Source: Candidatus Eiseniibacteriota bacterium
GTDB taxonomy: Bacteria; Eisenbacteria; RBG-16-71-46; JABDJR01
Reading direction: 5' to 3'
DNA length: 64,000 bases
Assembly (NCBI GenBank): GCA_963762255.1
Contig: CAVXKA010000003.1
Location: 832,001-896,000, forward strand
Shown: positions 10,705-55,472 of the stretch, piece after piece
Position numbering within the stretch: position 1 is the first letter of the stretch
Layout of the letters: each line of letters begins with the position of its first letter
The notes under the pieces: generated by a model
The model's input: only the letters and a program-made list of their open reading frames with translations
Database searches by the model: none
What the model was told of the DNA's origin: nothing
Program-made: the position numbers and the translations under genes

Positions 10705-11818
10705 GCACCTCCGGGAAGGTTTCGTCGCCCACCTGTGATTCGAGCCGCATGGAGGGAGCGAACGCCTCGGGGGCAAGGGTCGCCGCGAGCTCTCGGTAGC
10801 CGACCGCGAAGGCGTCGAAGGAGAACGGCGCCCGGACGTAACCGGTCGGGTCAAAGGTGTGCCGAGTCCGGATCACCTCGTCTACGGCGCGCCGCCAATC
10901 CTCCGGCCGGTCCGCGTCCACGATCCAACCCCCGGCAAAGCGACCGGAGAGTCCCGCGAAGACGCCGGTGGCCGACGTGACGACCGGCGCGCCCGCGGCC
11001 ATGGCCTCGAGAGGAACGTAGGCGCAACCCTCGAACCGCGAAGGGAAGAAGAGAACGTCACACGAACGGTAGATCGCGGAGAGCGCTTCCGCGTCGGGAT
11101 CGACGAAGACCCGCGCCTGCGCAGGCGCCGTGCGCGGCGGAGTGGGTGAAGCCACCACGAACTGATACGTCGGGCGCGACGCGGCCAGTCGAAGCAGTCG
11201 GTCGTACCCCTTCTCGCGCGTGGGTCTCCCTGCGAAAGCGACGATCGGACGGTCCGCAGCGAGTTTCAATCTCGCTCGGGCATCGCGCCGATCCTCCGCC
11301 CCACTCGGCGGCTCGACACCGTTATGGACGACGACCGACTCGCAACCATAGTGGCGGCGCACGTCGCGCGCGACCCCCTCCGACACCGCCACTACGGCAT
11401 CGCCCCTGCGGGTGCTGTCGCGCTCCCAGCGGGAGGCCACGTGCCTCGTGTAGAGAGTTTTCGGATGCCATGGCGTCATGGCGTGCCGCGAGTAGCCCGC
11501 GTAATTGCCGTGCATCACCACAACCACCGGCACGGGGCGGCCGGGGAGAGGTTTCGGGAGCGCCATGGCGAGACTCCCGTTGGCCACGATGAGATCGAAA
11601 GGTCGCTCCAGATGGCGACGGACCGCCTCTCGGGCGAGAGCGCGCAGGAGACGCAGCTCACGCAGCCGGCCGGTGGAGAGATCCACGGAAAGGTCCTCGG
11701 CCGCGAGGCACTCGAGGCCGGGGAACACGCGGGAGAGATCGCGCGAGAACGTCTCCACGCCGCCCCTTGCACTTTCAGGCCGGGCGTAGGTGACGAGGAG
11801 AACGCGGGGATCGCTCAT
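10694..11818 (-). CDS. Glycosyltransferase family 4
   Basis: RGGVE, VVAVSEGV, AGRPTREKG, FPSRFEGCAYVPLEAMAAGAPVV. Confidence 0.9.
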   Translation of the reverse strand: MSDPRVLLVTYARPESARGGVETFSRDLSRVFPGLECLAAEDLSVDLSTGRLRELRLLRALAREAVRRHLERPFDLIVANGSLAMALPKPLPGRPVPVVVVMHGNYAGYSRHAMTPWHPKTLYTRHVASRWERDSTRRGDAVVAVSEGVARDVRRHYGCESVVVHNGVEPPSGAEDRRDARARLKLAADRPIVAFAGRPTREKGYDRLLRLAASRPTYQFVVASPTPPRTAPAQARVFVDPDAEALSAIYRSCDVLFFPSRFEGCAYVPLEAMAAGAPVVTSATGVFAGLSGRFAGGWIVDADRPEDWRRAVDEVIRTRHTFDPTGYVRAPFSFDAFAVGYRELAATLAPEAFAPSMRLESQVGDETFPEVRVA

Positions 11819-35766: not shown

Positions 35767-37614
35767 TCAACCGGCCGTGAAGGCGGGCAAGGTGACGATG
35801 AAGGCCGTGCCGAGCCCCGGTCTGCTGCGCATGTCGATGCTGCCGCCGTGCATTTCCACAGCTTGTTGAACCAGCGCCAGCCCCACCCCGGTTCCCTCTT
35901 TCTTGGTAGTGAAGTAGAGATCGAACACGCTCGCCTGCAGTTCGACAGGGATCCCCTCGCCGCAATCTTCGACGGTTAGACGGACCCGCTGACCTACAGG
36001 GTACGCGGAAACAGAGATCGGCGCCGACCCTGCCGGAGACGCCTGGATCGCGTTGCGCAAGAGATTGAGGAGGGCTTGGCGAAGGACCTCCTCGTCCCCG
36101 TAGATCTCCGGCAGATTCTCGGCCACGTCGAGGGTGATCTCGACGCCCGCCAGGCGTGCCTCAGGCAGGACCAGCTCGCGCAGTTCGCGCAGAAACGGTG
36201 CCACATCGATCGGCTTGAGGCTCAGCTCCTGCAGCCGGGCCAACCGCAAAAACCCGTACACGACACGCTCCAGCCGGGCGATCTCGCGTTGCACCACATC
36301 CACGTGCGTTTGACTGGCGTCGCCCCCCGAGTCGCCCAGCTTCTGCTTGAGCAGCTCGAGATGGATGTTCATCGCGTTGAGCGGGTTGCGCACTTCGTGG
36401 GCCACCCCTGCCGCCATCTTCCCCAACCGCGAGAGCACCCGCGCGTGGTCGAGCATCTCCTGGATCTGCCGCATCCGGCCGTAGTCGCGCAGCGTAATCA
36501 TCGCGCCTTGCCGGCTCGGACCCTCCCCGACCACCTGGCAGGTGCCCAGATAGACCCGATCCCCTTCCCCCGTCGTGAACTCCATCGGGGCGGACTCCGG
36601 GCGGTGATCGCCGCCGAAAGCCTTGTCGACCATCTGCACCAGGGGATGACCCGCGGAGAGAACCTCGCCCAGATCCCGGCCGACCATCGCGCCGAACCCC
36701 GCACCGAGGATCCGGCATGCGGTTCGATTGGCCATGAGCACCTGACGGCGCGAATCGATCATGAGCAGGCCGTCGTCCACGGCATCGACAAGGCGGCGGA
36801 GCGTGTCCCCTTCGCTCACGAGCGTGTCGCGCTGGAGCAAGAGCTGCGCCCGCTCCTGGGAAAGCACCTCGCTCAGCGCGTTGATCTGGCGGGCCAGGTG
36901 ACCGACTTCATCCTGCGATCCCACCGGCACGCGATAACCGAAGTCGCCCCGCTGCAAGTGATCGATGCCTGCCTCGATGCGGCTCAGCGGCCGGAGGATG
37001 ACGATCCACGACACCGCGACGCCGAAGGCGGTGGCCAGGAGCACCTGCAGGATGAGCTTCACGATCTGGGTGCGAAGCACCGTCTGCATCTCTTCGCGCA
37101 GGAGTCCCGGCGAGAGGCCGACACGTACGGTGCCGAAGTCCCGATCGTTGAGGAGAACCGGCACCGAGATCTCCCATGCCTCGTGCTGGTGCACGATGGA
37201 CATGAACTGGCGCAGGAGCCCGAGCCCGCGTGCGGGGACGAGGCCGGGGTGCCGCGCGATCCGCGAACCGAGCTGCGTGCTGTCCGAGTGGCAGAGAACC
37301 AGATCGGTGGTGTCGGCCACCACCAGGTAGAGGACGGACGGCGTGAACTGCTGGGCGTCGGTCAGAACGCTCCTCAGGCGCGGGTCGCCCCGCACGACCT
37401 GAGCGGGGTCCGCGCCCGCCGCGCTGCGCAGCGAGATGGCGATCTGACTGATCACGAGGTTGGCGGCAAGCTCCGCGCGGGCCACCGCCGACTCGACCTC
37501 GACCCGGGTCAGCGTGGCAACCTCGACCATGGCCGAGCCCACCCCGATCAGAAACGCGAATAGCGTCAGCGCGAGGATGAGGACGAGGCGGATGCCGGGC
37601 CGTACCTTCGTCAC
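35767..37614 (-). CDS. Sensor histidine kinase (periplasmic domain, HAMP, PAS, HisKA, HATPase)
   Basis: DEVGHLA (HAMP), AGVAHEVRNPLN, LLNLLRNA, DCGEGI, YFTTKKEGTGVGL; GTG overlaps regulator stop. Confidence 0.92.
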   Translation of the reverse strand: MTKVRPGIRLVLILALTLFAFLIGVGSAMVEVATLTRVEVESAVARAELAANLVISQIAISLRSAAGADPAQVVRGDPRLRSVLTDAQQFTPSVLYLVVADTTDLVLCHSDSTQLGSRIARHPGLVPARGLGLLRQFMSIVHQHEAWEISVPVLLNDRDFGTVRVGLSPGLLREEMQTVLRTQIVKLILQVLLATAFGVAVSWIVILRPLSRIEAGIDHLQRGDFGYRVPVGSQDEVGHLARQINALSEVLSQERAQLLLQRDTLVSEGDTLRRLVDAVDDGLLMIDSRRQVLMANRTACRILGAGFGAMVGRDLGEVLSAGHPLVQMVDKAFGGDHRPESAPMEFTTGEGDRVYLGTCQVVGEGPSRQGAMITLRDYGRMRQIQEMLDHARVLSRLGKMAAGVAHEVRNPLNAMNIHLELLKQKLGDSGGDASQTHVDVVQREIARLERVVYGFLRLARLQELSLKPIDVAPFLRELRELVLPEARLAGVEITLDVAENLPEIYGDEEVLRQALLNLLRNAIQASPAGSAPISVSAYPVGQRVRLTVEDCGEGIPVELQASVFDLYFTTKKEGTGVGLALVQQAVEMHGGSIDMRSRPGLGTAFIVTLPAFTAG

Positions 37615-39047
37615 GCCGGACGGCCTCGGTACTTCCTGAGCTTGTTGTGGAGCGTGCGGGTGCTGATGCCGAGGATCTCCGCGGCTCGCGTCTTGTTGTC
37701 GCTCGTCTTGCGTAGCGTCTCGAGAATGAGGAGCTTCTCCGCCTCCTCGACCGTGCTGCCGACGCTCACGACCACCGTGGCGGCGTGCGAGCCGTTCGAG
37801 GGAACCGCGGCGGGTGCGAGGGTGACGGTCGCGGGCTGCTCCGCGAGCGGCGAGCCCTCGGCACGCGCCGGCGGAGGGGGGCCCAGACTGGGCAGATCGC
37901 AGACGTCGATGAGGGACCCCGCGGCGACGACGACCGCCCGCTCCACCACATTGCGCAACTCGCGGACGTTGCCCGGCCACCGGTGGGCGCGCAGCGCATC
38001 CTGCGCCGCCGCCGTGAAGCCGTCGAAGGTCTTGCCGTTGGCGCAGGCGAACTCGTGCAGGAAGTGTTGAGCGAGGAGCGGCACGTCCTGCAGCCTCTCG
38101 CGCAGCGCCGGAAGCGCGATGGTGAAGACGTTGAGACGGTAGAAGAGGTCTTCGCGAAAGCGGCCGCTCTGGAGCGCCCGACCGATGTCGGCGTTGGTGG
38201 AGGAGATGACGCGAACGTCGACCGGGATCTCCTGCCGACCTCCGACGCGCCGGATGCTGCGCTCCTCGAGAACGCGCAGCAGCTTCGCCTGAAGTTCGGG
38301 GGGCATCTCCCCGATCTCGTCGAGGAGGAGCGTGCCGCCGGTGGCGAGTTCGAAGCACCCGGCCCGATCCGCGGTGGCCCCGGTGAAGGAACCCTTCTGG
38401 TGGCCGAGGATCTCGCTTTCCAGCAACGACTGCGGGATGGCCGCGCAGTTGACGGCAACGAAGGGCCTGTTGCGCCGCGGGCTCATCTCGTGAAGCGTTC
38501 GCGCCACGACTTCCTTGCCGGTACCGCTTTCCCCGGTGATGAGCACTGATACACGGCTCGGCGCGGCCTGCCCGACGAGCCGGTAGACGTCCTGCATGAT
38601 CGGCGTGCGGCCGACCAGGTGGCCGAACTTCCCGCGCTCGGCGAGATCGCGCGTGAGCCGCAGCAATTCCTCGCGATCGCTCACGCGCTCGACCGCCTTC
38701 TCGAGAACCACCTTGAGTCGGGCGAGGTCGACCGGCTTGGTGAGGTAGTCGTAGGCGCCTTCGCGCATCGCCTGAGTCGCGTTCTCGATCGTGCCGTGGC
38801 CGGTGAGAAGGATGAATACGGCGTGGGGGAGCTCCTCGCGAACTGCGCTCATCAGCTCGATGCCGGACGGGCCGGGCATCATCAGATCGGAGAGCACGAT
38901 GTGAGGGGAGAACTCCTTGCAGATCGCCAGCGCGTCCCGCGCATCCGATGCCGGACGGCTCTTGTATCCCCAGCCGGAGATGAGCTCGGTGAGTCCGGCG
39001 CGCGCGGCCTCTTCATCGTCAACGACGAGGACTCGATACGATGTCAT
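37611..39047 (-). CDS. Sigma-54-dependent response regulator (NtrC/AtoC family)
   Basis: [42 protein letters not shown]-terminal [11 protein letters not shown]. Confidence 0.95.
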
Positions 39048-39399
39048 GGGGTGATCGCCTCCGTGGGCCGGATCCTCGATAGGCTGCTTCACCGCAGACT
39101 CCGGGCCGACGGGTGGAGACAATGCGAGGCCCGTGCCGGAGACCGAAGAACCATGCTACCTCCCAAATTTCAATGAGTTACAGCAATCAAAGGCAAACCT
39201 GAAGCCAAGACTCCAGGGACAAATCGAATGAGTGCGCAAATTTTACACGGTTTCGGCCATTCGCGCACCCCGGGGATAGGGACTATTCTTCGCGCAGGTT
39301 TTTGCCGAGCCTGCCAAGGATGCAGAGTGGATTGATCAATTCGAGCCTACCGGGGGGGGTATGGCCGTCCAAACCGTTGAAAACACGTGATGCGTGGGG

Positions 39400-39415
39400 T
39401 GGCACCGCTCTTGCT
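39400..39415 (+). promoter_or_regulatory. Sigma-54 promoter (-24/-12) facing the cytochrome operon
   Basis: TGGCAC-CGCTC-TTGCT is an exact match to TGGCAC-N5-TTGCW, beside a divergent bEBP gene. Confidence 0.78.
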
Positions 39416-39890
39416 CTTAGACGCGGGTGGAAGACCGAACCGGAATTCGCCTGGTTGGATCTCCGGGCTAGGTTTGGCCAATCGAAGGCGATTCGGGCTT
39501 CCGAGAAGCCAACCCACGTGAAGCACGGTGGGGGGCCGGGCGGAATTGCTCGAAGAGCACGATGTTCGGTACGCCGCCCGGTCCCCCATCCCCCCCTCCT
39601 CGGCGAGCCGACCGGCGTCAGCGGCAAGCTCTGGTTGAACCGGACCACCGCCATGGACGGAGCGGTGGCCTGGTCGACCACCCAAAATGATGAACTGCAC
39701 CTTCGGGGGGGTTTCGTCTGGCACGACTTCGGGCTCCTCGGGGTGTTTCCCCCCGCTCGTGTTCACCCAGAATCCGGCTGGCGGCCGGGGTGGGAACCCC
39801 GGACCGGTCAAGGGGGTTTCGCTCTCGACCGATATCGATTGCAGGATCACCCTCAACTGAAAGCCCTCGGCTCCTCGTCACGGCATAGGT

Positions 39891-40754
39891 GTGCGTTTGA
39901 AACGGACTCTGTCGATCATCTTTGTCCTACTTGCTGGGATCGCGATCGCCGGCGCGCCGTACTACACTCTCCCCATGTCCGGACGGGTCCGCAGTTCCTT
40001 TCACGAGTGGCTCCGTCCCTCGGGCTATGTCGGTCAGTCGCTCGGCATCATCGGCCTCGCGTGCTTTCTCTTCCTCTGGCTCTACCCGGTGCGCAAGCAC
40101 TTTCCTCAACTGGCGCGCACGGGCTCTATCGCGCGGTGGCTCCACGTCCACGTCATCGCCGGGCTCGCGACGCCGTTCTTGGTGGCGCTCCATGCGGGGT
40201 TCCGCTTCTCGGGGCTGGCCGGCCTCGCCTTTGCAGCGATGGTCGTGGTCTGGATGAGCGGCATCGTCGGGCGCTACCTCTACGCCCGCATCCCCCGCAG
40301 CCGGACCGGGCTGGCACTGAGCATCCAGGAGATCGGAACCCAGCGAGAGGATCTGATCCGGCGCATCGCCGCCGCCACAGGCCTCCATCCAGCCGATGTC
40401 CGTAAGGACCTCGCGGTGGAAGACGTCATGCACAAGGGGCTCGGGAAGCGTCAAACGCTCCGCCTCCAGATCACGGGCGATCTCGCCCGCCGTCGCGCCG
40501 TGCGCGACTTCCGCGCGAGGATCCTCGCGGGCACAGGAGGGGCGGTGAACATCGACGCGGGCGCGCTCGACGAGGCGCTTCGGTGCGCCCGGCGGGAGCT
40601 CGCCCTCGCCCAGCAACTCCGACTCCTGGAAGGGACCCAGCGCGTCTTCCGCTTCTGGCATGTCGCCCATCGCCCGGTAGCAGTGACCGCGCTCGTCGCC
40701 GTCGCCGTTCACGTCGGCGTCGTGATCGCCGTCGGCAGCACGTGGTTCAGGTAG
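39891..40754 (+). CDS. Inner-membrane protein with conserved-looking His pairs (putative heme-b, ferric-reductase-like)
   Basis: About 5-6 TM helices; WLHVHVIAG, VALHAG, SGIVGRYLY, FWHVAHRP, VAVHV. Confidence 0.78.
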   Translation: MRLKRTLSIIFVLLAGIAIAGAPYYTLPMSGRVRSSFHEWLRPSGYVGQSLGIIGLACFLFLWLYPVRKHFPQLARTGSIARWLHVHVIAGLATPFLVALHAGFRFSGLAGLAFAAMVVVWMSGIVGRYLYARIPRSRTGLALSIQEIGTQREDLIRRIAAATGLHPADVRKDLAVEDVMHKGLGKRQTLRLQITGDLARRRAVRDFRARILAGTGGAVNIDAGALDEALRCARRELALAQQLRLLEGTQRVFRFWHVAHRPVAVTALVAVAVHVGVVIAVGSTWFR

Positions 40755-40758
40755 CACG

Positions 40759-42183
40759 ATGATCGCACTCGTAACCACTGTCGCCTTCTGCGCGGTGACC
40801 GGCACCTTGATGGCGATCCATCTGCGGCGCAGCGCCTGCCGCGACCAGGCCGCCCCTGCCGTTTCCTGTCCGCGGTGCCGGGCCGAGGTCCCGGAAGGCC
40901 AGGATCGGTGCCCTCGGTGCGGCGTCCCGCAACAGATCTACGAGGTCGTGAGCGCGCAGACGGTGGTTCTGGAGAACGAGCCCGAAAAGGTCGCCGGGGA
41001 GATCGCACACGCCGTCGTACGCGCCGACAAGTGCCTCGGTTGCGGCACCTGTGTGGCCGCATGCCCCGAGCCGGGCGCGATCACGCTCCAGGGGAAGCTG
41101 GCAGTCGTCAATACGGACATCTGCCTGGGTCACGGCACCTGCGCGCAGGCCTGCCCTATCGGCGCGATCTCGCTGGGTGCGGGCGCGGCGGTGCAGCGCG
41201 TCGAGGTGCCGGAAGTGGACGCGGATTTCCAGTCCAACGTGCCCGGTGTCTACATCGTGGGCGAGCTCGGAGGGCGCGGCCTCATCAAGAACGCGATCAA
41301 CGAGGGAAAGGTCGCCATCGAAGCGGTGATGCGCGAGACGCAGCTCGGCGCGCGCCGCGGCGCCGCGGACGACGTCTACGACGTCATCATCGTCGGCTCG
41401 GGACCCGCGGGGTTGAGCGCGGGTCTCGAAGCGCACCGCGCCGGCCTGCGCTACGTCATCCTGGAGCAGGGAACACCCGCCGACACGATTCGCAAGTACC
41501 CGCGGCACAAGCTCCTCCTCGCCGAACCGGTTTCCGTTCCGCTCTACGGAGATCTCTGGGTCGCAGACGCCTCGAAGGAGAGCCTCATCCAGGTGTGGGA
41601 GACGATCATCGCCAACACCGGGATCGCGATCCGCACCGATCACCGCGTCGAGGACGTCGTCCGCGACGGAGAGAACTTCAAGGTTCGCACCAGCAAGGGG
41701 GAGTACCAGGCGCGGCGGGTGGTGCTGGCGATCGGCCGGCGCGGCACCCCGCGCCGCCTAGGGGCGCCCGGCGAGGAGCTGGCCAAGGTCGTCTACGACA
41801 TCGTGGAAATGGACGCGTTCGCCGGCCGCAGAGTTCTGGTGGTAGGCGGAGGCGACAGCGCCGTGGAATCCGCCCTCGGGTTGTCCAACCAGAAGGGCAC
41901 GGTGGTGCACCTCGCCTACCGCGGCCGCGAATTCTCCCGAGTCAAGGAGCGCAATCGCGTCAAGCTCGACGAGGCCACGGCGGCGGGGCGCGTGACGCTG
42001 CTGCTGGACACGGACGTGCTGCGGATCCTCGACGAGGAGGTCGTGCTCAAGGTCGGTGGGCAGGAGACGAACCTCCCCAACGACAACGTCATCATTCGCA
42101 TCGGCGGAGAGCCCCCGTCCTCGTTCCTCGAGCGCGCCGGCGTGCGCGTGGTCCAGAAGGACGTACCCCTGGTGGCGGCATGA
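40759..42183 (+). CDS. Membrane-anchored 2x[4Fe-4S] ferredoxin + TrxR/YpdA-like FAD/NADPH oxidoreductase
   Basis: N-terminal TM, CPRC..CPRC ribbon, CLGCGTCVAACP, CLGHGTCAQACP, PGVYIVGELGG, IVGSGPAG, VVGGGDSA, AYRG. Confidence 0.88.
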   Translation: MIALVTTVAFCAVTGTLMAIHLRRSACRDQAAPAVSCPRCRAEVPEGQDRCPRCGVPQQIYEVVSAQTVVLENEPEKVAGEIAHAVVRADKCLGCGTCVAACPEPGAITLQGKLAVVNTDICLGHGTCAQACPIGAISLGAGAAVQRVEVPEVDADFQSNVPGVYIVGELGGRGLIKNAINEGKVAIEAVMRETQLGARRGAADDVYDVIIVGSGPAGLSAGLEAHRAGLRYVILEQGTPADTIRKYPRHKLLLAEPVSVPLYGDLWVADASKESLIQVWETIIANTGIAIRTDHRVEDVVRDGENFKVRTSKGEYQARRVVLAIGRRGTPRRLGAPGEELAKVVYDIVEMDAFAGRRVLVVGGGDSAVESALGLSNQKGTVVHLAYRGREFSRVKERNRVKLDEATAAGRVTLLLDTDVLRILDEEVVLKVGGQETNLPNDNVIIRIGGEPPSSFLERAGVRVVQKDVPLVAA

Positions 42184-42202
42184 CCGGCGAAGGCTGCAGG
42201 GA

Positions 42203-44295
42203 ATGACCCGCCATGCGTCACGATGGCTGCGGGCGGTTCTGATGATGGGCGCGCTGCTGCTGCCGCGCGCCTCGTCCGCGCAGATCTCGCCCGGTGAGCT
42301 CTCGCGGGACCATCGCTCGCTCGAAGGTCCGCTCAACTGCCGCTCGTGCCACGCCGGCAAGACGAAGGAGATGGATCGCAACTGCCTCTCCTGTCACCAG
42401 GACATCCAGCGGCTGCGGGAGCAGAAGCGAGGATTTCACGCGCGAAACGGGGACGCACCGTGCGCGAGCTGCCATCCCGATCATGCAGGACGGGACTTCG
42501 AGCTGATCGCCTGGGACGGCGGCTCGTTCGAGAAGTTCGACCATGCGAAGGCCGGCTGGCCGCTGGCGGGCAAGCACGCCAAGGCCGCCTGCCGCGACTG
42601 CCACCAGCCCAAGCATCAGTCGGTCGAGTTCATGAAGCTCTCCAAGCGCGAGGATCCCGCCGAGAGCTGGGTCGGCCTCGAAACGGCCTGCGCCTCGTGC
42701 CACGAAGACACGCACCGAGGGGCGCTCGGCCCCGAGTGCGCCCGCTGCCACGGGAACGAAGCCTGGAAGCCCGCCACCGCCTTCGACCACGCCGCCACCG
42801 CCTTCGCGCTGACCGGCAAGCACACCGACGTGGAGTGCGCGAAGTGCCACTCGGCGGCCTCGCTCTCTCTCGCCCGCGACGACCAGGGCCGTCCGATCCC
42901 GCTGTACAAGCCGCTCCCCCACGCCGAGTGCGGCGCCTGTCACCGCGATCCGCACGAGAACCGGTTGGGCGCGGCGTGCGCTTCCTGCCACAAGACCTCC
43001 GGGTTCCGCGATCTCGCGTCCGGCCCGTTCAACCACAGCCTCACCCGCTTCGCGTTGCGCGGCGCGCACGCCTCGGTGGAATGCGCGAAATGCCATGACC
43101 CGGTGAAGGCGGGAGGCAAGCGGCCGGCTCACGATCGCTGCGACACCTGTCACCGCGATGCCCATGCGGGTCAGACCCTGCTCAAGGGCGCATCGTCCGA
43201 GCCCGTCGCTCCCGACTGCGCGGCGTGTCACGACGAGCGCGCGTTCCGGCCTTCGGTCTTCACGGTGGAGCGCCACGCCACCACCGCCTATCCGCTCGAC
43301 GGCAAGCACCGCGCGATCGAATGCCGCGCGTGCCACGCGAAGATCCCGGCAGGAGTCCCGAAGGACTCGCTCGGAACCGCCGGCGTGCTCATGAAACCCA
43401 AGTTCGCCGCGTGCCGCGACTGCCACCCGAGTCGCACGGAAAGCAGCTCGCGCGGCGCGCCGACGGGGGCGCGTGCGAGTCCTGCCATCGGGTCCAGGGG
43501 TGGAAGCCCAGCCTCTTCACCGTCGAGGACCACAGCCGCCTGAAGCTGGCGCTTCAGGGCCGCCACGCCGAGGCGGAGTGCGCCGCCTGTCACGGGCCGC
43601 GCCGCAAGGATCTGCCCGCGTTGCCCTCCGCGGAGGTGACCGGAAAGGCCGGCGTTCTCCTCGCCCTGGAGTCGGCGGAGTGTGTGAGCTGTCACGTGGA
43701 TCCGCATGCCGGAAGACTCACAGCATCCGGGAAGCCTGAGCCGGCCGTGTGCGCGTCATGCCACGGATCGGGAGGGTTCGCTCCGTCGACGCTCGACATG
43801 GTGCACCACGCCGCGCTGGGGTTCGCTCTTGAAGGGGCCCACGCGGCCGCCTCCTGCCTGGACTGCCATGCAGAACTTGCACGGCCTCGGCGCGCCTCCA
43901 CCCTCATTCTGGCCGCCATGAAGGAACCGCTGCTTCCGTTCGGCCAGAAGCGCACCGCGTGCGTCGACTGTCATGAGGACGTGCATGGCGGGCAGTTCAA
44001 GATGCGCGACGACGGCGGCGCCTGCGGCGGTTGCCACGGGCAGGAGAGCTTCAAGCCGGCCGTCCGGTTCGACCACGATCGCGGCACGGCCTTTGCTTTG
44101 CAGGGCGCCCATGCCTCGGTCGCTTGCGCGAAATGCCACATCGGCCGGGTGGACCCGGACGGCGTGAAGCGCATCGTGTATCGCCCCGTCCCACGGGATT
44201 GCGAGAGTTGCCACGGAGGGAAGCGCATGGAAGGGATGGGCGTGGAGACGCGGGCCGGCGCGCGGCCGGCACAGAGCCAGGAGGGGGAACGGTGA
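42203..44295 (+). CDS. Periplasmic multiheme cytochrome c (~23 CxxCH), frameshift near 43430
   Basis: Signal ending ASSA-QISPGELS; 14 CxxCH in ORF 42056 plus 9 in ORF 43225; FDHxxxxFxLxGxH repeats. Confidence 0.88.
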
Positions 44296-47200
44296 AGCCG
44301 ACCAGGACGTCGACTCATCACGCTGCTCCTGGCGGCGGCGTGCCTGCTTGGACGACCCGAGCAAGGGACCGGCGCTCCCGATCCCGACTACCCGCATGGG
44401 ACCTTTGAGGAGGACTGCACGACCTGCCACTCCCCCGAGGCATGGAAACCTGCGAGCTTCAGCAAGGATTTCGACCACGCCGCGTTCGGAATCCCCCTGG
44501 AGGGCGCGCACGCTCAGACCACCTGTCTGAACTGCCATCGCACGCTCGAGTTCGCGGACACCGGGACGCGCTGCGGCGGACTGCCACCAGGACATTCACC
44601 AGAGTGAGATGGGGCCGGAGTGCGCCGACTGCCACACCACGCGCAGTTTCGGCGATCGCGAGCGCATCGAGGCGCGCCACCAGGTCACCCGGTTTCCTCT
44701 GACCGGCGCCCACAGCACGCTGGATTGCGAGAGTTGTCACGGAGGGTCGGGGCAGGGGCACCTGATCTTCGTCGGCACGGCCTCGGAGTGCGCCTCCTGC
44801 CATACGAACAACTACCAGGCTACCCAGCAGCCTCCGCACGCGCTGAACGCGTTCTCCACGGAATGCACCCTCTGCCATGGAACGTCGCAATGGGATGGCG
44901 CCGTGCTGTCCGCCTCCGGGTTGCACTCCTTCGATCACGGGAAGGGCGGGTTCCCGCTGAACGGTGCCCATGCCCGGCAAGAGTGCATGAGTTGCCACGG
45001 AGACGGGACATTCGCCGGCAAGAGCATCGAGTGCGCGTCCTGCCACCAGGCCGACTACGACGGCACGACCGACCCGAACCATGCCACGGCCGGATTCGGG
45101 CTGGAATGCGCGAGCTGCCACGGGATGGAGCAGTGGAGGGGGGCAGCCTTCGATCACAATAGAACCGACTTCGCGCTCACCGGCTCCCACGTTGAACAAG
45201 AGTGTCGATCCTGCCACGGCGGCGGGGTCTACAACGGCTTGAGCACGCAGTGCGCGTCATGCCATCAGGCCGACTACGACGATACGGACGACCCGGACCA
45301 CGCGGCCGCCGGGTATCCCTTGGAGTGCGCAAACTGCCACAACACCGGAGACTGGGAGGAGGCCGAGTTCGATCATAACAAGACCCAGTTCGCGTTGACC
45401 GGGTCGCACGTGGAGCAGGAATGCCGCTCGTGCCACGGCGGCGGGGTCTACAACGGCTTGAGCACGCAGTGCGCGTCATGCCATCAGGCCGACTACGACG
45501 GCACGACCGACCCGAATCATGCCCTGGCCGGGTTCGGGGTGGAATGCGCCACATGCCACGGAACGACGCAGTGGAATGGCGTTGTCTTCGATCACACCCA
45601 GACCCAGTTCGCCCTGACCGGCTCGCACATCGAGCAGGAGTGCCGCTCCTGCCACGGCGGCGGGGTCTACAACGGCTTGAGCATGCAGTGCGCGTCATGC
45701 CACCAGGCCGACTATGACGGCACGGACGACCCGAACCACGCTCTTGCCGGGTATCCGCTGGCGTGCGAGACCTGCCACAACACCGGAGACTGGGAGGAGG
45801 CCGACTTCGATCACAACCAGACCCAGTTCGCGTTGACCGGATCGCACGTGGAGCAGGAGTGCCGCTCCTGCCACGGCGGCGGAGTTTACGACGGGCTGAG
45901 TATGGAGTGCGCCTCCTGCCATCAGGCCGATTACGACGATACGGACGACCCGAACCACGCTCTGACCGGGTTCGCTCTGGAATGCGCGACCTGCCACGGG
46001 ACGACACAGTGGGATGGAGCAACCTTCGATCACAATCAGACCGACTTCGCACTGACCGGGGCGCACGTGGGCCGGGAGTGCGCGAGCTGCCACGGTGGTG
46101 GGGTCTACGACGGACTGAGCATGGAGTGCGCCTCCTGCCATCAGGCCGACTACAGCGCCACGACGGATCCAAACCATGCTGCCGCGGGATATCCGTTGGA
46201 CTGCAAGAGCTGTCACGGGACTGCACAGTGGGACGGCGCGACCTTCGATCACAACCGGACCCAGTTCCCCCTGACCGGTTCGCACATCGAGCGGGAGTGC
46301 CGCTCGTGTCACGGCGGTGGGGTCTACGACGGGTTGGCTACCCAGTGCGCATCCTGCCATCAAGCCAACTACAACAGCACCACCGACCCCGCTCACGCGG
46401 CAGCCGGTTTCGCGCTTCAGTGCGAGACTTGCCACAACACGACGCAGTGGGACGGGGCGACTTTCGATCATACCCAGACCCAGTTCGCGTTGACCGGGTC
46501 GCACATCGAGCAGGAGTGCCGCTCATGTCATGGCGGCGGGGTCTACAACGGACTGAGCATGGAGTGCGCCTCCTGCCACCAATCGGATTACGACGGCACC
46601 ACCGACCCGAACCACGCAGCCGCCGGGTATCCCCTGGAGTGCGAGACCTGTCACGGGACGGCACGGTGGGACGGAGCCGACTTCGATCACAGCCAGACCC
46701 AGTTCGCGCTGACCGGCTCGCACATCGAGCAGGAGTGCGCGAGTTGTCACGGCGGCGGGGTCTACAACGGGCTGAGCATGGAGTGCGCTTCGTGCCACCA
46801 ATCAGATTTCAGCGCGACTACCGACCCCAATCACGCGGCGGCCGGCTTCGCGCTTCAGTGCGAGACCTGTCACAACACGACGCAGTGGGACGGGGCGACC
46901 TTCGATCACAACCAGACCCAGTTCGCGCTGACCGGCTCGCACATCGAGCAGGAGTGCCGCTCATGTCATGACGGCGGGGTCTACAACGGGCTGAGCATGG
47001 AGTGCGCCTCCTGCCACCAGCCCGACTACGACACGACCACCGACCCGAACCACGCCGCTGCGGGGTATCCGTTGGACTGCCAGACCTGCCACGGAACGGC
47101 ACAGTGGGACGGAGCCGACTTCGATCACGCCCAGACCCTCTTCCCGCTAACTGGATCGCATATCGAACAGGAATGCCGCTCATGTCACGGCGGCGGCGTC

Positions 47201-50200
47201 TACGACGGGTTAGCTACCGAGTGCGCCTCCTGCCACCAGCCCGACTACGACGGAACGACCGATCCCAACCACGCGGCGGCCGGCTTCGCGACTTCAGTGC
47301 GAGACCTGCCATAACACGGCACAGTGGGACGGGGCGACCTTCGATCACAGCCAGACCCAGTTCGCACTGACCGGGTCGCACATCGAACAGGAGTGCCGCT
47401 CGTGTCACGGCGGCGGCGTCTACGACGGGTTAGCTACCGAGTGCGCCTCCTGCCACCAGCCCGACTACGACGGAACGACCGATCCCAACCACGCGGCGGC
47501 CGGCTTCGCGCTTACAGTGCGAGACCTGCCATAACACGACACAGTGGGACGGGGCGACCTTCGATCACAGCCAGACCCAGTTCGCACTGACCGGGTCGCA
47601 CATCGAACAGGAGTGCCGCTCGTGCCACGGCGGCGGCGTCTACGACGGGTTGGCTACCGAGTGCGCCTCCTGCCACCAGCCCGACTACGACGGAACGACC
47701 GATCCCAACCACGCGACCGCTGGTTACTCCACCCTGTGCGAGACGTGCCACGGCACGATGAAGTGGGAAGGCGCAGTATTCAATCACAGCCGCACGGACT
47801 TCCCGCTGACCGGGGCGCACGTCGAGCAGGAATGCCTGAGCTGCCACACCGATGGCGTCTACGACGGCCGAGCACGCAATGCGCCTCGTGCCACCGAGCC
47901 GAACTACAACGGGACGACGGATCCGGATCATGCGGCGGCCGGCTTCCCGACGAACTGCCAGACCTGCCACAACACGACGCAGTGGGAAGGGGCCACCTTC
48001 AACCACTCCAGACACAGCTTCCCGCTGACGGGATGCACACGTTCGCCAGAGTGCGACGCCTGCCACGGCGGCGGGGTCTTCGACGGCGAACCACGGAGTG
48101 CTTCTCCTGCCACCAGGCCGACTTCAACGGGACGACGAATCCCAATCACGTCAGCGCCGGCTTCCCCACGATTGCGCAGACGTGCCACACCACCAGCGGT
48201 GGCCGGGGGCCACCTTCAACCACTCAGACGATCTTCCCGCTGACCGGGGCCCACACCAGCGCGGACTGCAGCAGCTGCCACACCGGCGGGCGTCTACCAG
48301 GGGACCTCACACGCTGTGCTATTCCTGCCACCAGGCCGACTACAACGGGACCACGAATCCCAATCACGTCAGCGCCGGGTTCCCCCACGACTGCAGCACC
48401 TGTCACACCACGACAGCGGCTGGCCGGGAGCCACCTTCAACCACTCAGATCGCTTCCCGCTGACCGGCGGCTCACATCAGCGTCGGACTGCAGCACCTGC
48501 CACAGCGGCGGCGTCTACCAGGGACTGACCACCCTGTGCTATGCCTGCCACCAGGCCGACTACAACGGGACCACAAATCCCAATCACGCGCAGCGCCGGG
48601 TTCCCCGACCTGCAGCACCTGTCACAACACGAGCGTGGGCGGGAGCCGACTTCAACACAACCAGACTCGCTTCCCGCTGACCGGCGGCCACACGGCGTCA
48701 GGAGTGCCGCAACTGCCACGCCGGCGGTGTCTACCAGGGCATGACCACCGCTGTGCTACTCCTGCCACCAGGCCGACTACAACGGGACGACGAATCCCAA
48801 TCACGCGCAGGCCGGCTTCCCCATGAGTGCCAGACCTGCCACACCACCACGGCTGGGCCGGAGCGACCTTCAATCACTCCAGAGCGATCTTCCCGCTGAC
48901 CGGCGCCCACACGAACGTGGAGTGCAGCACTTGCCACGCCGGCGGCGTCTACAAGGGACTCGCACCCTGTGCTACTCCTGCCACCAGGCCGACTACAACG
49001 GGACAACGATCCCAATCACGCAGCGCCGGGTTTCTCACGATTGCGAGACCTGCCACACCATCAACGGCTGGCCGGGGGCCACCTTCAGCCATCGGACAGC
49101 TTCCCGATGACCGGGGCACACACGGCGTGCGAGCTGCACGAACTGCCACGCCGGCGGCGTCTACAGGGACTCGCACCCTCTGCTACTCCTGCCACCAGGG
49201 CGACTACAACGGGACCACGAATCCCAACCACGCCAACGCCGGTTTCTCACCGACTGCAGCACGTGCCACACCTCCACGGCTGGCCCGGAGCCACCTTCAA
49301 TCACCACGAGCTTCCCGCTGACCGGGGGCACAGCAACGTGGAGTGCAGCACCTGCCACGCCGGCGGCGTCTACAAGGGACTCGCACCCTGTGCTACTCCT
49401 GCCACCAGGCCGACTACAGCGGCACCACGAATCCCAACCACGCCCAGGCCGGCTTCTCGCCTGCAGTGCAGACCTGCCACACCACAACGGCTGGCCGGGA
49501 GCCACCTTCAACCACTCACAGACGAGCTTCCCGCTGACCGGCGCCCACATCGACAGGAGTGCCTGCCTCCTGCCACGGCGGCGGGGTGTACAACGGACCT
49601 CCACCGAGTGCTACTCCTGCCACCAGGCCGACTACGACGGGACCACCGACCCCAATCACGCCCGCCGGCTTCCCGGCTGACTGTGCCAGACGTGTCACAA
49701 CACCACGACCTGGCTTGGCGCCGTCTTCGATCACAACCAGTCGCAGTTTCCCCTCACCGGGGCCCATCTGGCCGTGGAATGCATGAGCTGCCACGGCGGC
49801 GGGGTCTACAACGGGTTGAGCACGCAATGCGCCTCCTGCCACCAGTCGGACTACAACGGCACGACGGATCCCAATCACGCCGCCGGCCGGGTTCTCGCTC
49901 CCAATGCCAGACCTGCCACACCACGACCGCCTGGCCGGGCGCGACATTCAACCACAGCCAGACGAGCTTCCCGCTTACGGGGTCGCACGTTCAGCAAGAG
50001 TGCCTGAGCTGTCACGGCGGCGGGGTCTACAACGGGTTGAGCACGCAATGCGCCTCCTGCCATCAGTCGGACTACAACGGCACGACGGACCCCAACCATA
50101 CCGCCGCCGGATTCCCGCTCCAGTGCCAGACCTGCCACAACACCACAACCTGGCAGGGGGCCACGTTCGATCACGATTCGCAGAACTTCCCGATCTATTC

Positions 50201-50397
50201 CGGCAGGCACCGCGACAAGTGGGATGTGTGCACCGACTGCCACACGAACGCGACCAACTACTCGGTCTTCTCCTGTCTGGGCTGCCACCCGCACTCCGAC
50301 AAGTGGGAAGACCGACTCGGATCACCGGGGCGAGTCGGGCTACAGGTACGACAGCGCGGCCTGCTACAACTGTCATCCTCGGGGTCAGGGGGGCTGA
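44292..50397 (+). CDS. Giant multiheme cytochrome c (~82 CxxCH, ~2000 aa), multiple frameshifts
   Basis: GTG overlaps upstream TGA; 36 CxxCH in ORF 44609..47314; repeats continue across frames to FDHDSQNFPIYSGRH...CTDCH..CLGCH..CYNCHPRGQGG*. Confidence 0.85.
44930..50166 (+). repeat. 24 tandem ~219-nt (73-aa) coding repeats, each a tri-heme module
   Basis: FDH/FNH starts at approx. 44930, 45149, 45368, 45587, 45806, 46025, 46244, 46463, 46682, 46901, 47120, 47340 ... 49947; consensus FDHxQTxFxLTGSHxxxECxSCHGGGVYxGLSxxCASCHQxDYxxTTDPNHxxAGFxxxCxTCHxTxxWxGA. Confidence 0.92.
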
Positions 50398-52014
50398 TGT
50401 TCGAGTTCATCCGCGGCGCGATCCTCCTCCTGGCCGCGCTGCTCGGCCTCTCCACCGTCGCGGGGGGCAGGAGGCACCGATCTCTCCCGCCGGCGCCGAC
50501 TTCCGTGGCCCATGTCACTTACATCACCGGGGGGCTCGTCTACCTGGACGCCGGCCGCGAGGACGGACTCGAAGTGGGCCGGGAACTGAGCGTGGAGCGC
50601 GAGGGTGCGGTCATCGCGACGATTCGGGTCGAGCACGTCGCCTCCCATCGCGCGTCGTGCTCGATCGTCGGTACCGGCGAGGCGCCTCGCGAGGGCGACG
50701 TGGTCCGTTACGCCCCGCGACCGGGAACGGAGTCGGGCGATTCGACCGCCTCGTCGGCCCCGATCCAGGTCGGGACGGGTCGTGACGGCCGGACTCTTCG
50801 CCAGCTCGGCCTGCGGGGACGGGTCGGCATCCGGTATCTCACCGCGCTAGATCAGACCGATTTCGGGGCCGACTTCACGCAGCCGTCGCTCGATCTTCTC
50901 CTCACGGGAACCGCGGTCGCCGGCAGCCCCTTCAGCTTCGCGCTCGACACCCGCGCGCGCCGCACCTACCGCACGCACGCGGACGGATCGCACACGGATG
51001 ACGGACGGACGCGGGTCTACCGGCTGAACGCGTCGCACCAGGCGACCGGATCCCCGCTGCGGATCTCGCTGGGACGCCAGGTGTCACCGGATCTCGCCTC
51101 GGTGAGCCTCTTCGACGGCGCGCTCGCCGAGTACGGACGCGCGACCACGGCCTGGGGGCTCTTCGGCGGGGCCACCAGCCCGATCCGGAGTCGTACGGCG
51201 TTAGCTCGCACGTCCTGGAGTACGGGACCTACGCCCGCGTGCAGAGCCCGCAGGGGCACTCGCTCAGGTGGTCGGCCACCGGGGGCGGGATTCGCTCGCT
51301 CGTGGACGGTGTACGCGATCGCGATTACGTCTTCTTGCGCGGGCAGCTCATGGACTCGCGCGTGTACGGATACGTGAGCCAGGAGATCGACGTCGACGAG
51401 TGGCGCGCCTCGGAGGGCGACCGGCGGCTCTTCTCGCCCACCAGCACGTACGCCGGCTTTCGGTGGCAGGCGGTGGAGTGGCTGAGCCTCAATGCCGGTT
51501 TCGACAACCGGAGGAGCGTGCGCCTCTATCAGGACCCGAGACCCCGGAGCACCGAATTCGACTACAGCTTCCGGCGAGGTCTGCGCGGAGGAGCGACGCT
51601 GCGACTCCAGGCAATCGCTTCACGCTGGGGACCAGCGCGCAGACCAACCGGGGCGGTTCGGGCGGCTCCTCCGACTCGTACACGATCACCTCACGGGCCG
51701 CCCGCGTGTCCCCTCTCTCGATCGACCTGGCCAGCCGGCACACGCGCTTCACGGGTCCGCTCACCGAGGGCTGGCTGCATTCCGCGAGCGCTGCCGCGCC
51801 GATCGGTCCTCGTCGCCGCGTGGAATTCGAAGGCGGCCGGCGTCAGGAAACCCGTTCGTTCGGTCCGGCCACATCCGTCGCCACGACGTGGTACGGGGTG
51901 AACGCCGACGTGGGATTGTGGTCGGGCTGGTACTTCCTGCTCTCGGTGACGTCCACGCGCGGCGACACCGAGAAGAACGATCAGATCTACTCGAGCCTCT
52001 CCTACCGCTTCTGA
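50397..52014 (+). CDS. Outer-membrane beta-barrel (porin-like) protein, frameshifted
   Basis: MFEFIRGAILLLAALLG signal, N-terminal VYLDAGREDGL domain, alternating beta-strand segments, ISLGRQ, C-terminal YSSLSYRF BAM-type signature; pieces in ORFs 48969, 51239, 51268. Confidence 0.75.
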
Positions 52015-52334: not shown

Positions 52335-53551
<1,217 letters not shown>

Positions 53552-53555
<4 letters not shown>

Positions 53556-54286
53556 GTGGGCATCCCCGCGGCGGCCGTGTCGGTCCGCGACACGACCGGC
53601 CGGTCGTCGACCACGAGACCGTCGCTCAGCACGATGATCCGCTTCGCAAACTGCGCGATGTCCTGCTCGTGGGTGATGAGGAGGATCGTCATCCCCGCGC
53701 GGTTCAGTTCCTGCAAGACGCGCATCACCTCGAACGAGGTCGTGGTGTCGAGGTTCCCGGTCGGCTCGTCGGCCAGCAGCAACGGCGGCTCGTTGACCAG
53801 CGCGCGGGCGATGGCCACGCGCTGCTGCTGCCCGCCGGAGAGCTGGTTGGGAGCGTGGTGCGAGCGATCGGCGAGGCCCACCCGATCGAGCGCCTGATGG
53901 GCACGTTGCGCGATGGACCTTCCGCGGACGGACGAGTAGATCATCGGCAGCTCGACGTTCTCCAGCGCGCTGGTGCGGGCCAGCAGGTTGAAGCTCTGAA
54001 AGACGAACCCGATCTTCCGATTCCGGATCTCGGCCAGTTCGTCCCGCGAGAGGTGCGAGACGTCCTCGCCGTCCAGTTCGTAGATCCCTGACGTCGGACG
54101 GTCGAGGCAGCCGAGGATGTTCATGAGGGTGGACTTCCCGCTCCCCGACGACCCCATGACCGCGACCATCTCGCCCGGATCGACGTCGATCGACACGCCC
54201 CGCAGCGCCTGCACCTGGTTGTCGCCCTCGCCGTAGGTCTTGACCAGATCGCGGGCCCGCAGAACCCGTCGGTCAGCGCCGTGCAC
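53552..54286 (-). CDS. MacB/LolD-type ABC ATP-binding protein
   Basis: GSSGSGKST, IGFVFQSFNL, LSGGQQQRVAIARAL, LLADEPTGNLD. Confidence 0.95.
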
Positions 54287-55472
54287 GGGTCATGCCTCCG
54301 GGGGCGAACGGATTGACCTGACCCTGGGCCGCGCCCGCAGCCGACCCGTTGGTCGCGGCGATCACGACCTGCATTCCCTCTCGGAGCGAATCGGCGGCGA
54401 CGGCGGTGAAGGTCCCGTCGCTCAAACCGGGGGTCACGCGAACCCGGTGGAGCTTCCCGTTCTCGGCGAGGACGAAGACCGCGGGACCACCTCGCGCGCC
54501 GGCCGGCCGCTGTCCGTCCGCCGCGGCGCCCGGCGCTCGCACGGCCCCCGGCTTCGCCGCCGGCCGGAAGCGCAGCGCCGCCGACGGCACCCTCAGCACG
54601 CCGCGTGCCTCGTTCACGAGGAAGGTGGCGTTGGCGGTCATGCCGGGGAGCAGCAACTGATCGGGGTTCTCGACGAGGACGATCACCGTGTAGGACACCA
54701 CGTTCTGCACGGTCTGCGGGGCGAGGCGGATCTGGTGCACGACGCCGCTGAAGGTTCGCTCGGGGAACGCGTCGACGGTGAAGCTGACCTTCTGGTCGAC
54801 CTGGATCATGCCGATGTCGGCCTCGTCCACCGACGCCTCGAGCTGCATGCGGGTGAGGTCGTTGGCGATGGTGAAGAGGGTCGGCGCGGACAGCGAGGCG
54901 GCCACCGTCTGACCGACGTCGACGTTGCGCGAGATGACGATGCCGTCGATGGGAGAGGCGATGGTGGCGTAGTGCAGGTTCGTGCGCGCGCGATCGAGCG
55001 CGGCTTCCGCGGACTTCTGCGAGGCCTGGGCCGCCTCGAGCGCGGTTTGGGCCGCGTCGATTTCGGCCTGCGAAGCCAGACCCTGATCGCGCATGGGAGC
55101 TACCCGCGCGTAGTCCCGCTCCGCCTGGCGCACCGTCACCTTGGCTCGCTCCAGGTCGGCCTCGTTCTGCGACTCCTGCGCCTTCAGAAACGTCGGATCG
55201 AGCTGGGCGAGGACCTGGTTCTTGTGGACCCGGTCGTTGAAGTCGGCGTAGAGCGCGGCAGATGGTGCCGCTGACCTGGCTTCCGACCTGCACGGTGGTC
55301 ACCGCGTTCAGGGTTCCGGTGGCCGACACCTGAACGATCACGTCGCCACGCTGCACCGCCTCGGTGCGGTAGGGAGATTCCGGCTTCTGCTCCCGCCGCA
55401 GCGTCCACGCCACGACTGCGGCCCCCAGGACCACCACGACCGCCGCCAGGATGCCCCAGTCCTCTTGCGCAT
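54273..55472 (-). CDS. MacA-like periplasmic adaptor subunit (frameshifted)
   Basis: VSATGTLNAVTTVQVGSQVSG; IASPIDGIVISRNVDVGQTVAASLSAPTLF; LLPGMTA. Confidence 0.9.

Follow-up and report, generated by a model that had tools for sequence, protein, structure and literature searches.

The stretch of DNA analysed here (hereafter the window) comprises 64,000 nucleotides (nt; 67% G+C) from a Candidatus Eiseniibacteriota bacterium (GenBank assembly GCA_963762255.1, contig CAVXKA010000003.1, positions 832,001 to 896,000), and it carries, between positions 39400 and 52014, a cluster of five co-oriented genes on the plus strand. In order, these encode an inner-membrane protein (IMP), a membrane-anchored iron-sulphur (Fe-S) flavoprotein, a 23-haem cytochrome c, a giant multihaem cytochrome, and an outer-membrane β-barrel (Table 1). 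As the initial annotation of this DNA had stated, neighbouring genes in the cluster are adjacent or overlap. The IMP and flavoprotein genes lie 4 nt apart, the ATG of the 23-haem gene (42203) comes 19 nt past the flavoprotein stop, the TGA of the 23-haem gene (44293–44295) shares a GTGA with the start of the giant cytochrome gene (44292–44295), and the TGA of the latter (50395–50397) meets the ATG of the barrel gene (50397) in a TGATG overlap (50395–50399). All five genes read in that annotation are real, though only those for the IMP and the flavoprotein are intact open reading frames (ORFs), the other three being broken in the assembly.

Table 1. Features of the five-gene cluster and of its upstream control region, in window coordinates.
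Feature	Position	Strand	Basis
Sensor histidine kinase ORF (sCache/HAMP/PAS/HisKA/HATPase)	35767..38358	-	Pfam
NtrC-type response regulator/sigma-54 activator (Response_reg + Sigma54_activat + HTH_8), divergent from the cluster	37611..39122	-	Pfam
Sigma-54 promoter-like site TGGCACCGCTCTTGC, 477 nt upstream of the IMP gene	39400..39414	+	Motif search
IMP, 287 residues, candidate di-haem b carrier	39891..40754	+	Intact ORF, motifs, model
Membrane-anchored Fe-S flavoprotein, 474 residues	40759..42183	+	Intact ORF, Pfam
Periplasmic 23-haem cytochrome c, Sec signal peptide, one frame change	42203..44295	+	Motifs, orthologue alignment
Giant multihaem cytochrome, ~2035 codons, 78 intact CXXCH, at least 21 frame changes	44292..50397	+	Motif counts
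219-bp tandem array (73 codons, three haems), 23.6 copies, 76% matches, inside the giant cytochrome gene	45022..50174	+	Repeat search
Outer-membrane β-barrel gene, product ending in LSYRF, two frame changes	50397..52014	+	Homologue alignment/model

Whereas the initial annotation had not recognised this architecture as a known system, the cluster in fact matches PCC3, a porin-cytochrome cluster that He et al. (2017; PMC5566968) had predicted, the IMP signature included. The passages of that paper on PCC3 describe a porin, an extracellular multihaem cytochrome (MHC) that is built of repeats and has a large and variable number of haems (median 34, up to 85), a periplasmic MHC of about 21–27 haems (median 21), and an IMP which, in PCC3 and PCC4 alike, has about 300 residues, five transmembrane (TM) helices, an SGXXG motif on TM4, and WX3HX13H motifs on TM3 and TM5. 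In the window, we find an IMP of 287 residues with five TM helices, both WX3HX13H motifs, and the SGXXG motif, a periplasmic MHC with 23 CXXCH motifs and a signal peptide, a giant repeat-built MHC with 78 CXXCH motifs in which a 219-bp unit recurs 23.6 times, and an adjacent barrel gene whose homologue is modelled with 22 strands. The cluster is therefore of the PCC3 type, agreeing with the Sideroxydans/Leptothrix-type PCC3 in every one of these features, a match at the level of features. PCC3 is itself a prediction, and the cluster does not belong to a pathway already characterised in a different role.

What is newly seen is the flavoprotein as a conserved fifth gene of a PCC3-type cluster, PCC3 as such having been described before. 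In the passages on PCC3 of He et al. (2017) and of a preprint on Sideroxydans sp. CL21, the cluster has four genes and a flavoprotein goes unmentioned; PCC4 is there said to include "other redox-active proteins" (PMC5566968). Likewise, no paper describing a flavoprotein partner was found in the full-text literature, as searched through titles, abstracts, and passages, with most subscription journals lying outside this coverage. Compared with published PCC3, then, the barrel, the periplasmic MHC (about 21–27 haems there and 23 here), the repeat-built MHC (up to 85 haems there and about 78–82 here), and the IMP motifs are the same. In contrast, the clusters studied here have the extra flavoprotein gene, occur in Gemmatimonadota, FCB-group phyla, and Acidobacteriota rather than in Proteobacteria, and follow a different gene order.

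In the IMP, the WX3HX13H motifs read WLHVH-x13-H (residues 83–101, on TM3) and WHVAH-x13-H (residues 256–274, on TM5), with SGIVG (residues 123–127) on TM4. Alignment of 73 diverse homologues revealed that His87, His101, His260, His274, Trp256, Gly124, and Gly127 are invariant, and that Trp83 and Ser123 are nearly so. The AlphaFold model (pLDDT 94.3) has five long membrane helices and a helical insert of about 125 residues between the fourth and the fifth. By the positive-inside rule, the N-terminus and the insert would both be cytoplasmic, which would therefore place His87 and His260 near the inner face of the membrane, and His101 and His274 near the outer face. Here, the insert, which is conserved, could serve as a dock for a partner. 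No NCBIfam model matched the IMP, and a Foldseek search of the PDB with its model returned nothing at E≤1e-3. Structural superposition using VIA-align gave Z scores of 8.4 for a designed two-haem bundle, 8.2 for CybB (PDB ID: 5oc0; root-mean-square deviation (rmsd) of 3.5 with 134 residues aligned), 8.0 for STEAP1 (PDB ID: 6y9b), 7.2 for SpNOX (PDB ID: 8qq7; rmsd of 3.0 with 118 residues aligned), and 6.9 and 6.3 for the cytochrome b subunits of formate dehydrogenase-N and hydrogenase-1, respectively. The family is a large one, with 2436 cluster representatives at E≤1e-3 and 1231 at E≤1e-10. Those homologues that carry names come from Gemmatimonadota and are labelled hypothetical without exception, and in the ESM Atlas, the clusters returned, from Gemmatimonadota and Acidobacteriota, all bore the label 'hypothetical protein'.

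The flavoprotein begins with a TM helix, after which come a Zn ribbon, a ferredoxin domain for two clusters, and an FAD/NAD(P) domain of the Pyr_redox_3 family (Pfam), and its sequence contains no redox-active CxxC. Among 62 homologues, the FAD motif (Gly213, Gly215, and Gly218), the NAD(P) motif (Gly363 to Ala368), and the second cluster motif, Cys122-x2-His125-x2-Cys128-x3-Cys132-Pro (CxxHxxCxxxCP), are all invariant, the histidine included, while the second cysteine (Cys95) of the first ferredoxin motif is variable. Given the invariant His125 and the variable Cys95, the clusters may not be two plain [4Fe-4S] but His-ligated [4Fe-4S] or [3Fe-4S]. A TM helix followed by basic residues opens the homologues of every phylum sampled, from which, again by the positive-inside rule, the enzyme would face the cytoplasm; among the same homologues, the Zn ribbon is confined to the Gemmatimonadota group. 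The nearest solved relatives of its FAD/NAD(P) domain are YpdA/Bdr bacillithiol-disulfide reductases (YpdA/TrxR-type enzymes; PDB ID: 7A76, E 3.6e-29; 7A7B, E 2.5e-25) and TrxR-type ferredoxin-NADP+ reductases (FNRs; 3AB1 and 6GAR, both about 1e-12). The flavoprotein differs from these in having, besides, a TM anchor, a Zn ribbon, and a ferredoxin domain with two clusters, as well as in its cytochrome gene context. The NCBIfam model for YpdA/Bdr (TIGR04018) scores 162.4 bits, far below its cut-off of 339.9. Together with the invariant histidines of the IMP, these domains and the TM helix agree well with the inner module that the initial annotation had pictured, that is, a His-rich membrane protein joined by an anchored Fe-S/FAD/NADPH enzyme. 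Complex prediction for the IMP and the flavoprotein, with two haems and two [4Fe-4S] clusters included, scored 0.01 against a mark of 0.32, a result that speaks neither for nor against binding.

The linkage between the IMP and flavoprotein genes is widely conserved. Within the class of the window's organism, the IMP was matched in 15 of 41 genomes, the window's own among them. The flavoprotein gene occurs in 10 of the 11 loci from these relatives (the 11th is a 3.3-kb contig), and a barrel match in eight. All six same-class loci that were examined as full 20-kb stretches hold a 20–23-haem cytochrome, and five of them also a second cytochrome ORF with 13 to 85 CXXCH motifs. At the sixth (L015 4059–9946, genome G024), an IMP, a flavoprotein, a single 20-haem cytochrome, and a barrel were seen, with no second cytochrome ORF in this stretch; judging from this locus, the cluster may do without a surface cytochrome, or the gene for it may lie in another place. 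More broadly, a scan of one genome per species with a 21-sequence IMP alignment returned at least 581 stretches, of which the best 80 give the following counts. These 80 loci belong to Calditrichota, Ignavibacteria, Zixibacteria, Acidobacteriota, Bacteroidota, Marinimicrobia, Gemmatimonadota, and others, none of them being proteobacterial, and the flavoprotein gene is linked to the IMP gene in 61 of them, across several phyla and in four gene orders: the IMP gene leading and the flavoprotein gene at the end (31 of the 61), the flavoprotein gene directly after the IMP gene (22), the flavoprotein gene before the IMP gene (seven), and the flavoprotein gene on the opposite strand (one). At each of the 19 loci that lack the flavoprotein gene, the contig ends 14 to 6563 nt past the IMP gene. 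Moreover, an IMP, a flavoprotein, a barrel match, and at least 25 CXXCH motifs occur together at 43 of the 80. All five genes are syntenic in many other genomes, in keeping with the initial annotation's view of them as one system. Among metagenome contigs, where the IMP found 59 loci, a divergent arrangement was seen in nine of the 20 inspected, all of these being at least 9 kb long.

As for the cytochromes, the window contains 101 CXXCH motifs on the plus strand and none on the minus strand, all of them inside 42338–50362. The 23 motifs in 42203–44295 bear out the 23 haems first proposed for the periplasmic cytochrome; the 82 haems proposed for the giant one are approximately right, in that 78 intact motifs were counted in 44296–50397 and about three expected repeat positions lack an intact motif. 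Orthologues of the periplasmic cytochrome in relatives have 20–23 haems, and intact 23-haem ones of 741–774 residues are found at the same-class loci L013 and L014. The signal peptide of the giant cytochrome (RRLITLLLAAAC...) has a lipobox-like end, LAAAC, and the protein would probably be extracellular; its haem count is among the largest seen for such a protein. At another relative locus (L018 6762–12977, genome G034), an intact frame of 2071 residues holds 85 CXXCH motifs, a number equal to the maximum of He et al. (2017). The model for DmsE-family decahaem cytochromes (TIGR03508) reached 45.4 bits on the giant cytochrome, where the cut-off is 192.2, and was not listed for the 23-haem orthologue. 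With regard to the barrel, three fragments from the window cover residues 3–571 of a 573-residue open frame at L014, with 48–55% identity. The model of this homologue (L014:14194–15819; pLDDT 83.3) comprises a signal helix, a small N-terminal β-domain, and 22 strands. In the PDB, 288 matches to this model were found at E≤1e-3, and the top ones listed are outer-membrane barrels throughout. Here too, the earlier suggestion of a β-barrel for the last gene stands, by way of the homologue.

Copies of the module also occur on plasmids. In the cultured aerobe Emticicia oligotrophica DSM 17448, the whole of it lies on pEMTOL02 (NC_018749.1 81299–89995), directly after ccsA, and includes an IMP, a flavoprotein, 23-haem and 40-haem cytochromes, and a candidate barrel of 538 residues. 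In RefSeq, these carry the labels hypothetical, NAD(P)-binding domain-containing, cytochrome c3 family (twice, with 23 and 40 CXXCH), and hypothetical. As it resides in a cultured strain, this copy is a possible experimental model, one in which the role of the PCC3 IMP would become directly testable. More distant relatives of the IMP have other flavoproteins as neighbours. On Rhizorhabdus pDC01, a protein with FAD_binding_6, NAD_binding_1, and Fer2 domains is followed by an IMP-like gene and a multihaem cytochrome in a metal-resistance setting. A set with an IMP-like protein that has one WX3HX13H motif is found at CP021182.1 26747–30104 and on conjugative sphingomonad plasmids, where it adjoins a heavy-metal-responsive regulator and an efflux system. 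Similar records come from about 19 Sphingobium, as well as from Sphingomonas, Rhizorhabdus, and Novosphingobium, and this combination of an FNR-type flavoprotein, an IMP-like protein, and a cytochrome is apparently carried by many sphingomonad plasmids. The Sphingobium megaplasmid AP027337.1 (190460–195907) encodes an 842-residue protein that opens with a GSGPAG dinucleotide-binding motif; next come an ORF of 79 residues, an IMP in which SGXXG and the two WX3HX13H motifs are all present, and a protein with 10 haems. By analogy, such pairing of distant IMP relatives with unrelated NAD(P)H-type flavoproteins and c-type cytochromes would lend independent support to an NAD(P)H input.

As noted, the assembly leaves only two of the five genes unbroken. 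Alignment of intact orthologues to the window places one frame change in the 23-haem gene (near 43426–43429) and two in the barrel gene (near 51170 and 51607–51613). In the giant cytochrome gene, there are 21 frame changes between successive CXXCH motifs, one near 44524–44621 and 20 between 47222 and 50362, and one further change is needed just past the GTG at 44292, the signal peptide lying in the frame of the preceding stop. Throughout this gene, the third-position G+C (GC3) signal tracks each locally shifted frame, and the 78 CXXCH motifs are kept. Elsewhere in the same assembly (contig C2, 1285412–1293342), rpoB is broken into two fragments and rpoC into three, one fragment having internal stops, from which we estimate an indel rate of roughly one error per few kb. 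Closer to the cluster, a MacB-type permease gene (52335–53555, minus strand) is scattered over four ORF fragments (MacB_PCD positions 1–49, 67–113, and 131–179, plus FtsX). Because the rpoB, rpoC, and MacB-type permease genes are split as well, the frame breaks in the cluster are most likely indel errors of the long-read consensus, at their worst in the tandem array. When compared with the consensus unit, the noisy half of this array shows 77% unit identity, too noisy for indels to be placed at homopolymers, and the 59 metagenome loci are all at most 60% identical, none being near enough for a check of the frames. At 5993–10854 on the minus strand of the window, two high-GC3 ORFs of 976 and 775 residues overlap by about 400 nt and may represent another frameshifted large gene.

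Our reading of the locus is that of a PCC3-type cluster extended by a conserved flavoprotein gene, in which a split NOX-like NAD(P)H input would feed a trans-envelope haem wire, and to this we assign a probability of roughly 55%. A direct link to NAD(P)H is suggested by domain content together with gene linkage. What the analysis establishes is the gene content, the motifs, the synteny, and the barrel fold of a homologue; the binding of cofactors, the contacts between the proteins, the direction of electron flow, and the acceptor are inferred. In outline, cytoplasmic NAD(P)H would reduce the FAD of the membrane-anchored flavoprotein, whose two Fe-S clusters would hand electrons to a haem b held by His87 and His260 at the cytoplasmic face of the IMP. 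From this inner haem, they would move through the membrane to another haem b (His101 and His274), pass to the 23-haem periplasmic cytochrome, and be conducted through the 22-strand barrel to the surface cytochrome of about 80 haems, which would deliver them to an external acceptor, for example, a metal oxide, a humic substance, a partner cell, or a soluble oxidant. The inner part would amount to an NADPH oxidase or ferric reductase split over two polypeptides, with the quinone pool bypassed. Proton pumps would be bypassed as well, and the path would for that reason serve as a redox valve (a redox-balancing outlet) or as an extracellular reductase, and not as an energy-conserving, proton-pumping respiration. 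Going by standard potentials, outward flow should be downhill, whereas inward flow to NAD(P)+ should oppose both the potential and the membrane voltage.

This proposed logic, from NAD(P)H via flavin and two bis-His b haems on HX13H helices to an outside acceptor, is the one known from NOX, FRE, and SpNOX proteins (PF01794). However, the IMP has no PF01794 match, a separate TrxR/YpdA-type dehydrogenase with two Fe-S clusters takes the place of a fused FNR-type domain, and the acceptor would be a chain of multihaem cytochromes instead of O2 or Fe(III) directly. With MtrCAB and the Geobacter Pcc (OmaB-OmbB-OmcB), the cluster has in common a periplasmic multihaem cytochrome in a barrel and a surface cytochrome, though these systems have 10 + 10 or 8 + 12 haems and draw on quinol via CymA, ImcH, or CbcL, while here there are 23 and about 80 haems, a barrel of 22 strands as modelled for the homologue, and a different inner module. 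Two further candidates for identity were rejected on the published descriptions of their components: the Geobacter-type Pcc of Ignavibacterium album, as its periplasmic cytochrome has 14 haems (Shi et al., 2014), and the OetABI conduit, as it has different parts (Murali et al., 2023).

Several points weigh against the NAD(P)H-fed wire that we propose. There is no experiment on any PCC3 component, and the bioinformatically predicted PCC3 is still called functionally unverified in passages of Hoover et al. (2023; PMC10734462) and of the Sideroxydans CL21 preprint. The likeness to the proteobacterial PCC3 proteins is, as said, one of features. No Pfam family matched the IMP at E≤0.01, that of the ferric reductases (PF01794) included, and its sequence profile found nothing in the PDB at E≤1; moreover, its di-haem fold matches tie with unrelated bundles, in a range of Z scores that is common for helical bundles. 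For the flavoprotein, the preference for NADPH or NADH is read from motifs alone. Furthermore, He et al. (2017; PMC5566968), in the passages concerned, compare the IMP to the domain of the ferric reductases and propose that it is a di-haem cytochrome b active on quinones, with electrons flowing inward in Fe(II) oxidisers. In this published PCC3 model, the wire would link the quinone pool to extracellular substrates, possibly carrying electrons inward when metals are oxidised or electrons taken up, and the IMP would be a cytochrome b active on quinone or quinol, with the flavoprotein left as an accessory, whether an alternative input or a maintenance reductase. The analogy that these authors draw with the cytochrome b of bc1 and of [NiFe] hydrogenase suits such a role, as do the cytochrome b subunits of formate dehydrogenase-N and hydrogenase-1 among our fold matches, and the proteobacterial PCC3 is portrayed with four genes and no flavoprotein in the passages at hand. 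Nonetheless, we consider the quinone model unlikely, in view of a flavoprotein linkage that holds across four gene orders and several phyla, the unrelated NAD(P)H flavoproteins beside distant IMP relatives, the conserved cytoplasmic insert of about 125 residues that could dock a partner, and the fact that no quinone site was identified in the IMP, either here or in the relevant passages of the PCC3 papers.

The same list of parts could also run backwards, with electrons taken up from low-potential donors (cathodes, Fe(0), or reduced partners) and the flavoprotein reducing NAD(P)+. According to passages in the PCC3 literature, Fe(II) oxidisers were the first organisms in which PCC3 was recognised, and in Sideroxydans sp. 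CL21 the expression of its genes exceeds the mean (preprint). However, standard potentials suggest that the step from Fe(II) to NAD(P)+ is uphill and that inward electrons work against the membrane potential, and the cluster encodes no energy-coupling subunit, all of which makes reverse operation, in our estimate, very improbable. A different kind of doubt concerns the organism itself, in which the cluster might be a decaying set of pseudogenes, with real frameshifts and no wire made. There are about 24 frame changes across three of the five genes, and their density at 47.2–50.4 kb is far above that in rpoB and rpoC; in fact, about 20 changes in 3.1 kb of the giant cytochrome gene compare with about three in some 8 kb of rpoB and rpoC, which also counts against the NAD(P)H-fed wire. 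Yet the essential rpoB and rpoC are split too, as is the neighbouring permease gene, and the dense region is the tandem array, the weakest spot for a long-read consensus. Old decay, moreover, would not leave a pattern in which all 78 CXXCH motifs and the GC3 signal persist in the shifted frames, and we hold decay to be quite unlikely.

Beyond the window, we tentatively extend the NAD(P)H-fed reading, at slightly less than even odds, to a quinone-independent outlet from NAD(P)H to the cell surface, which would be a split, two-membrane analogue of NOX and the ferric reductases, shared by hundreds of species, aerobes included, across Gemmatimonadota, Acidobacteriota, and the phyla of the FCB group, and mobile on plasmids. 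This wider reading, held with the same reserve, takes in a novel di-haem b membrane protein family, a total of over 100 c-type haems, a 22-strand barrel, and a His-ligated second cluster that would probably face the partner. To our knowledge, the characterised extracellular electron transfer chains of Gram-negative bacteria all start at the quinone pool (CymA, ImcH, and CbcL). If true, the proposal would give extracellular electron transfer a different entry, and the cell a direct cytoplasmic redox valve. In metagenomes, PCC3 genes would come to indicate more than iron oxidation, and candidate electroactivity would be extended to abundant phyla of soil, sludge, and sediment.

For a cluster of this kind, the window adds a dedicated sigma-54 two-component control region. 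The perfect sigma-54 promoter claimed in the initial annotation is indeed present, as the exact sequence TGGCAC-N5-TTGC occurs once in the whole window, at the plus-strand site in Table 1; with at most one mismatch allowed, there are five matches against 2.9 expected. Divergently from the cluster lie the genes of the response regulator and the sensor histidine kinase, the ORF of the kinase overlapping that of the regulator, with its true start probably near 37600. Both rpoN and the cytochrome c assembly genes are encoded in the same genome. The 477-nt leader between the sigma-54 site and the IMP gene (39415–39890) is rich in G and C homopolymers and contains a 68-codon ORF (39654–39860). On the other side of the cluster, the MacB-type permease gene is followed on the minus strand by genes for an ABC ATPase (53552–54286) and a HlyD-type adaptor (54273–55139).

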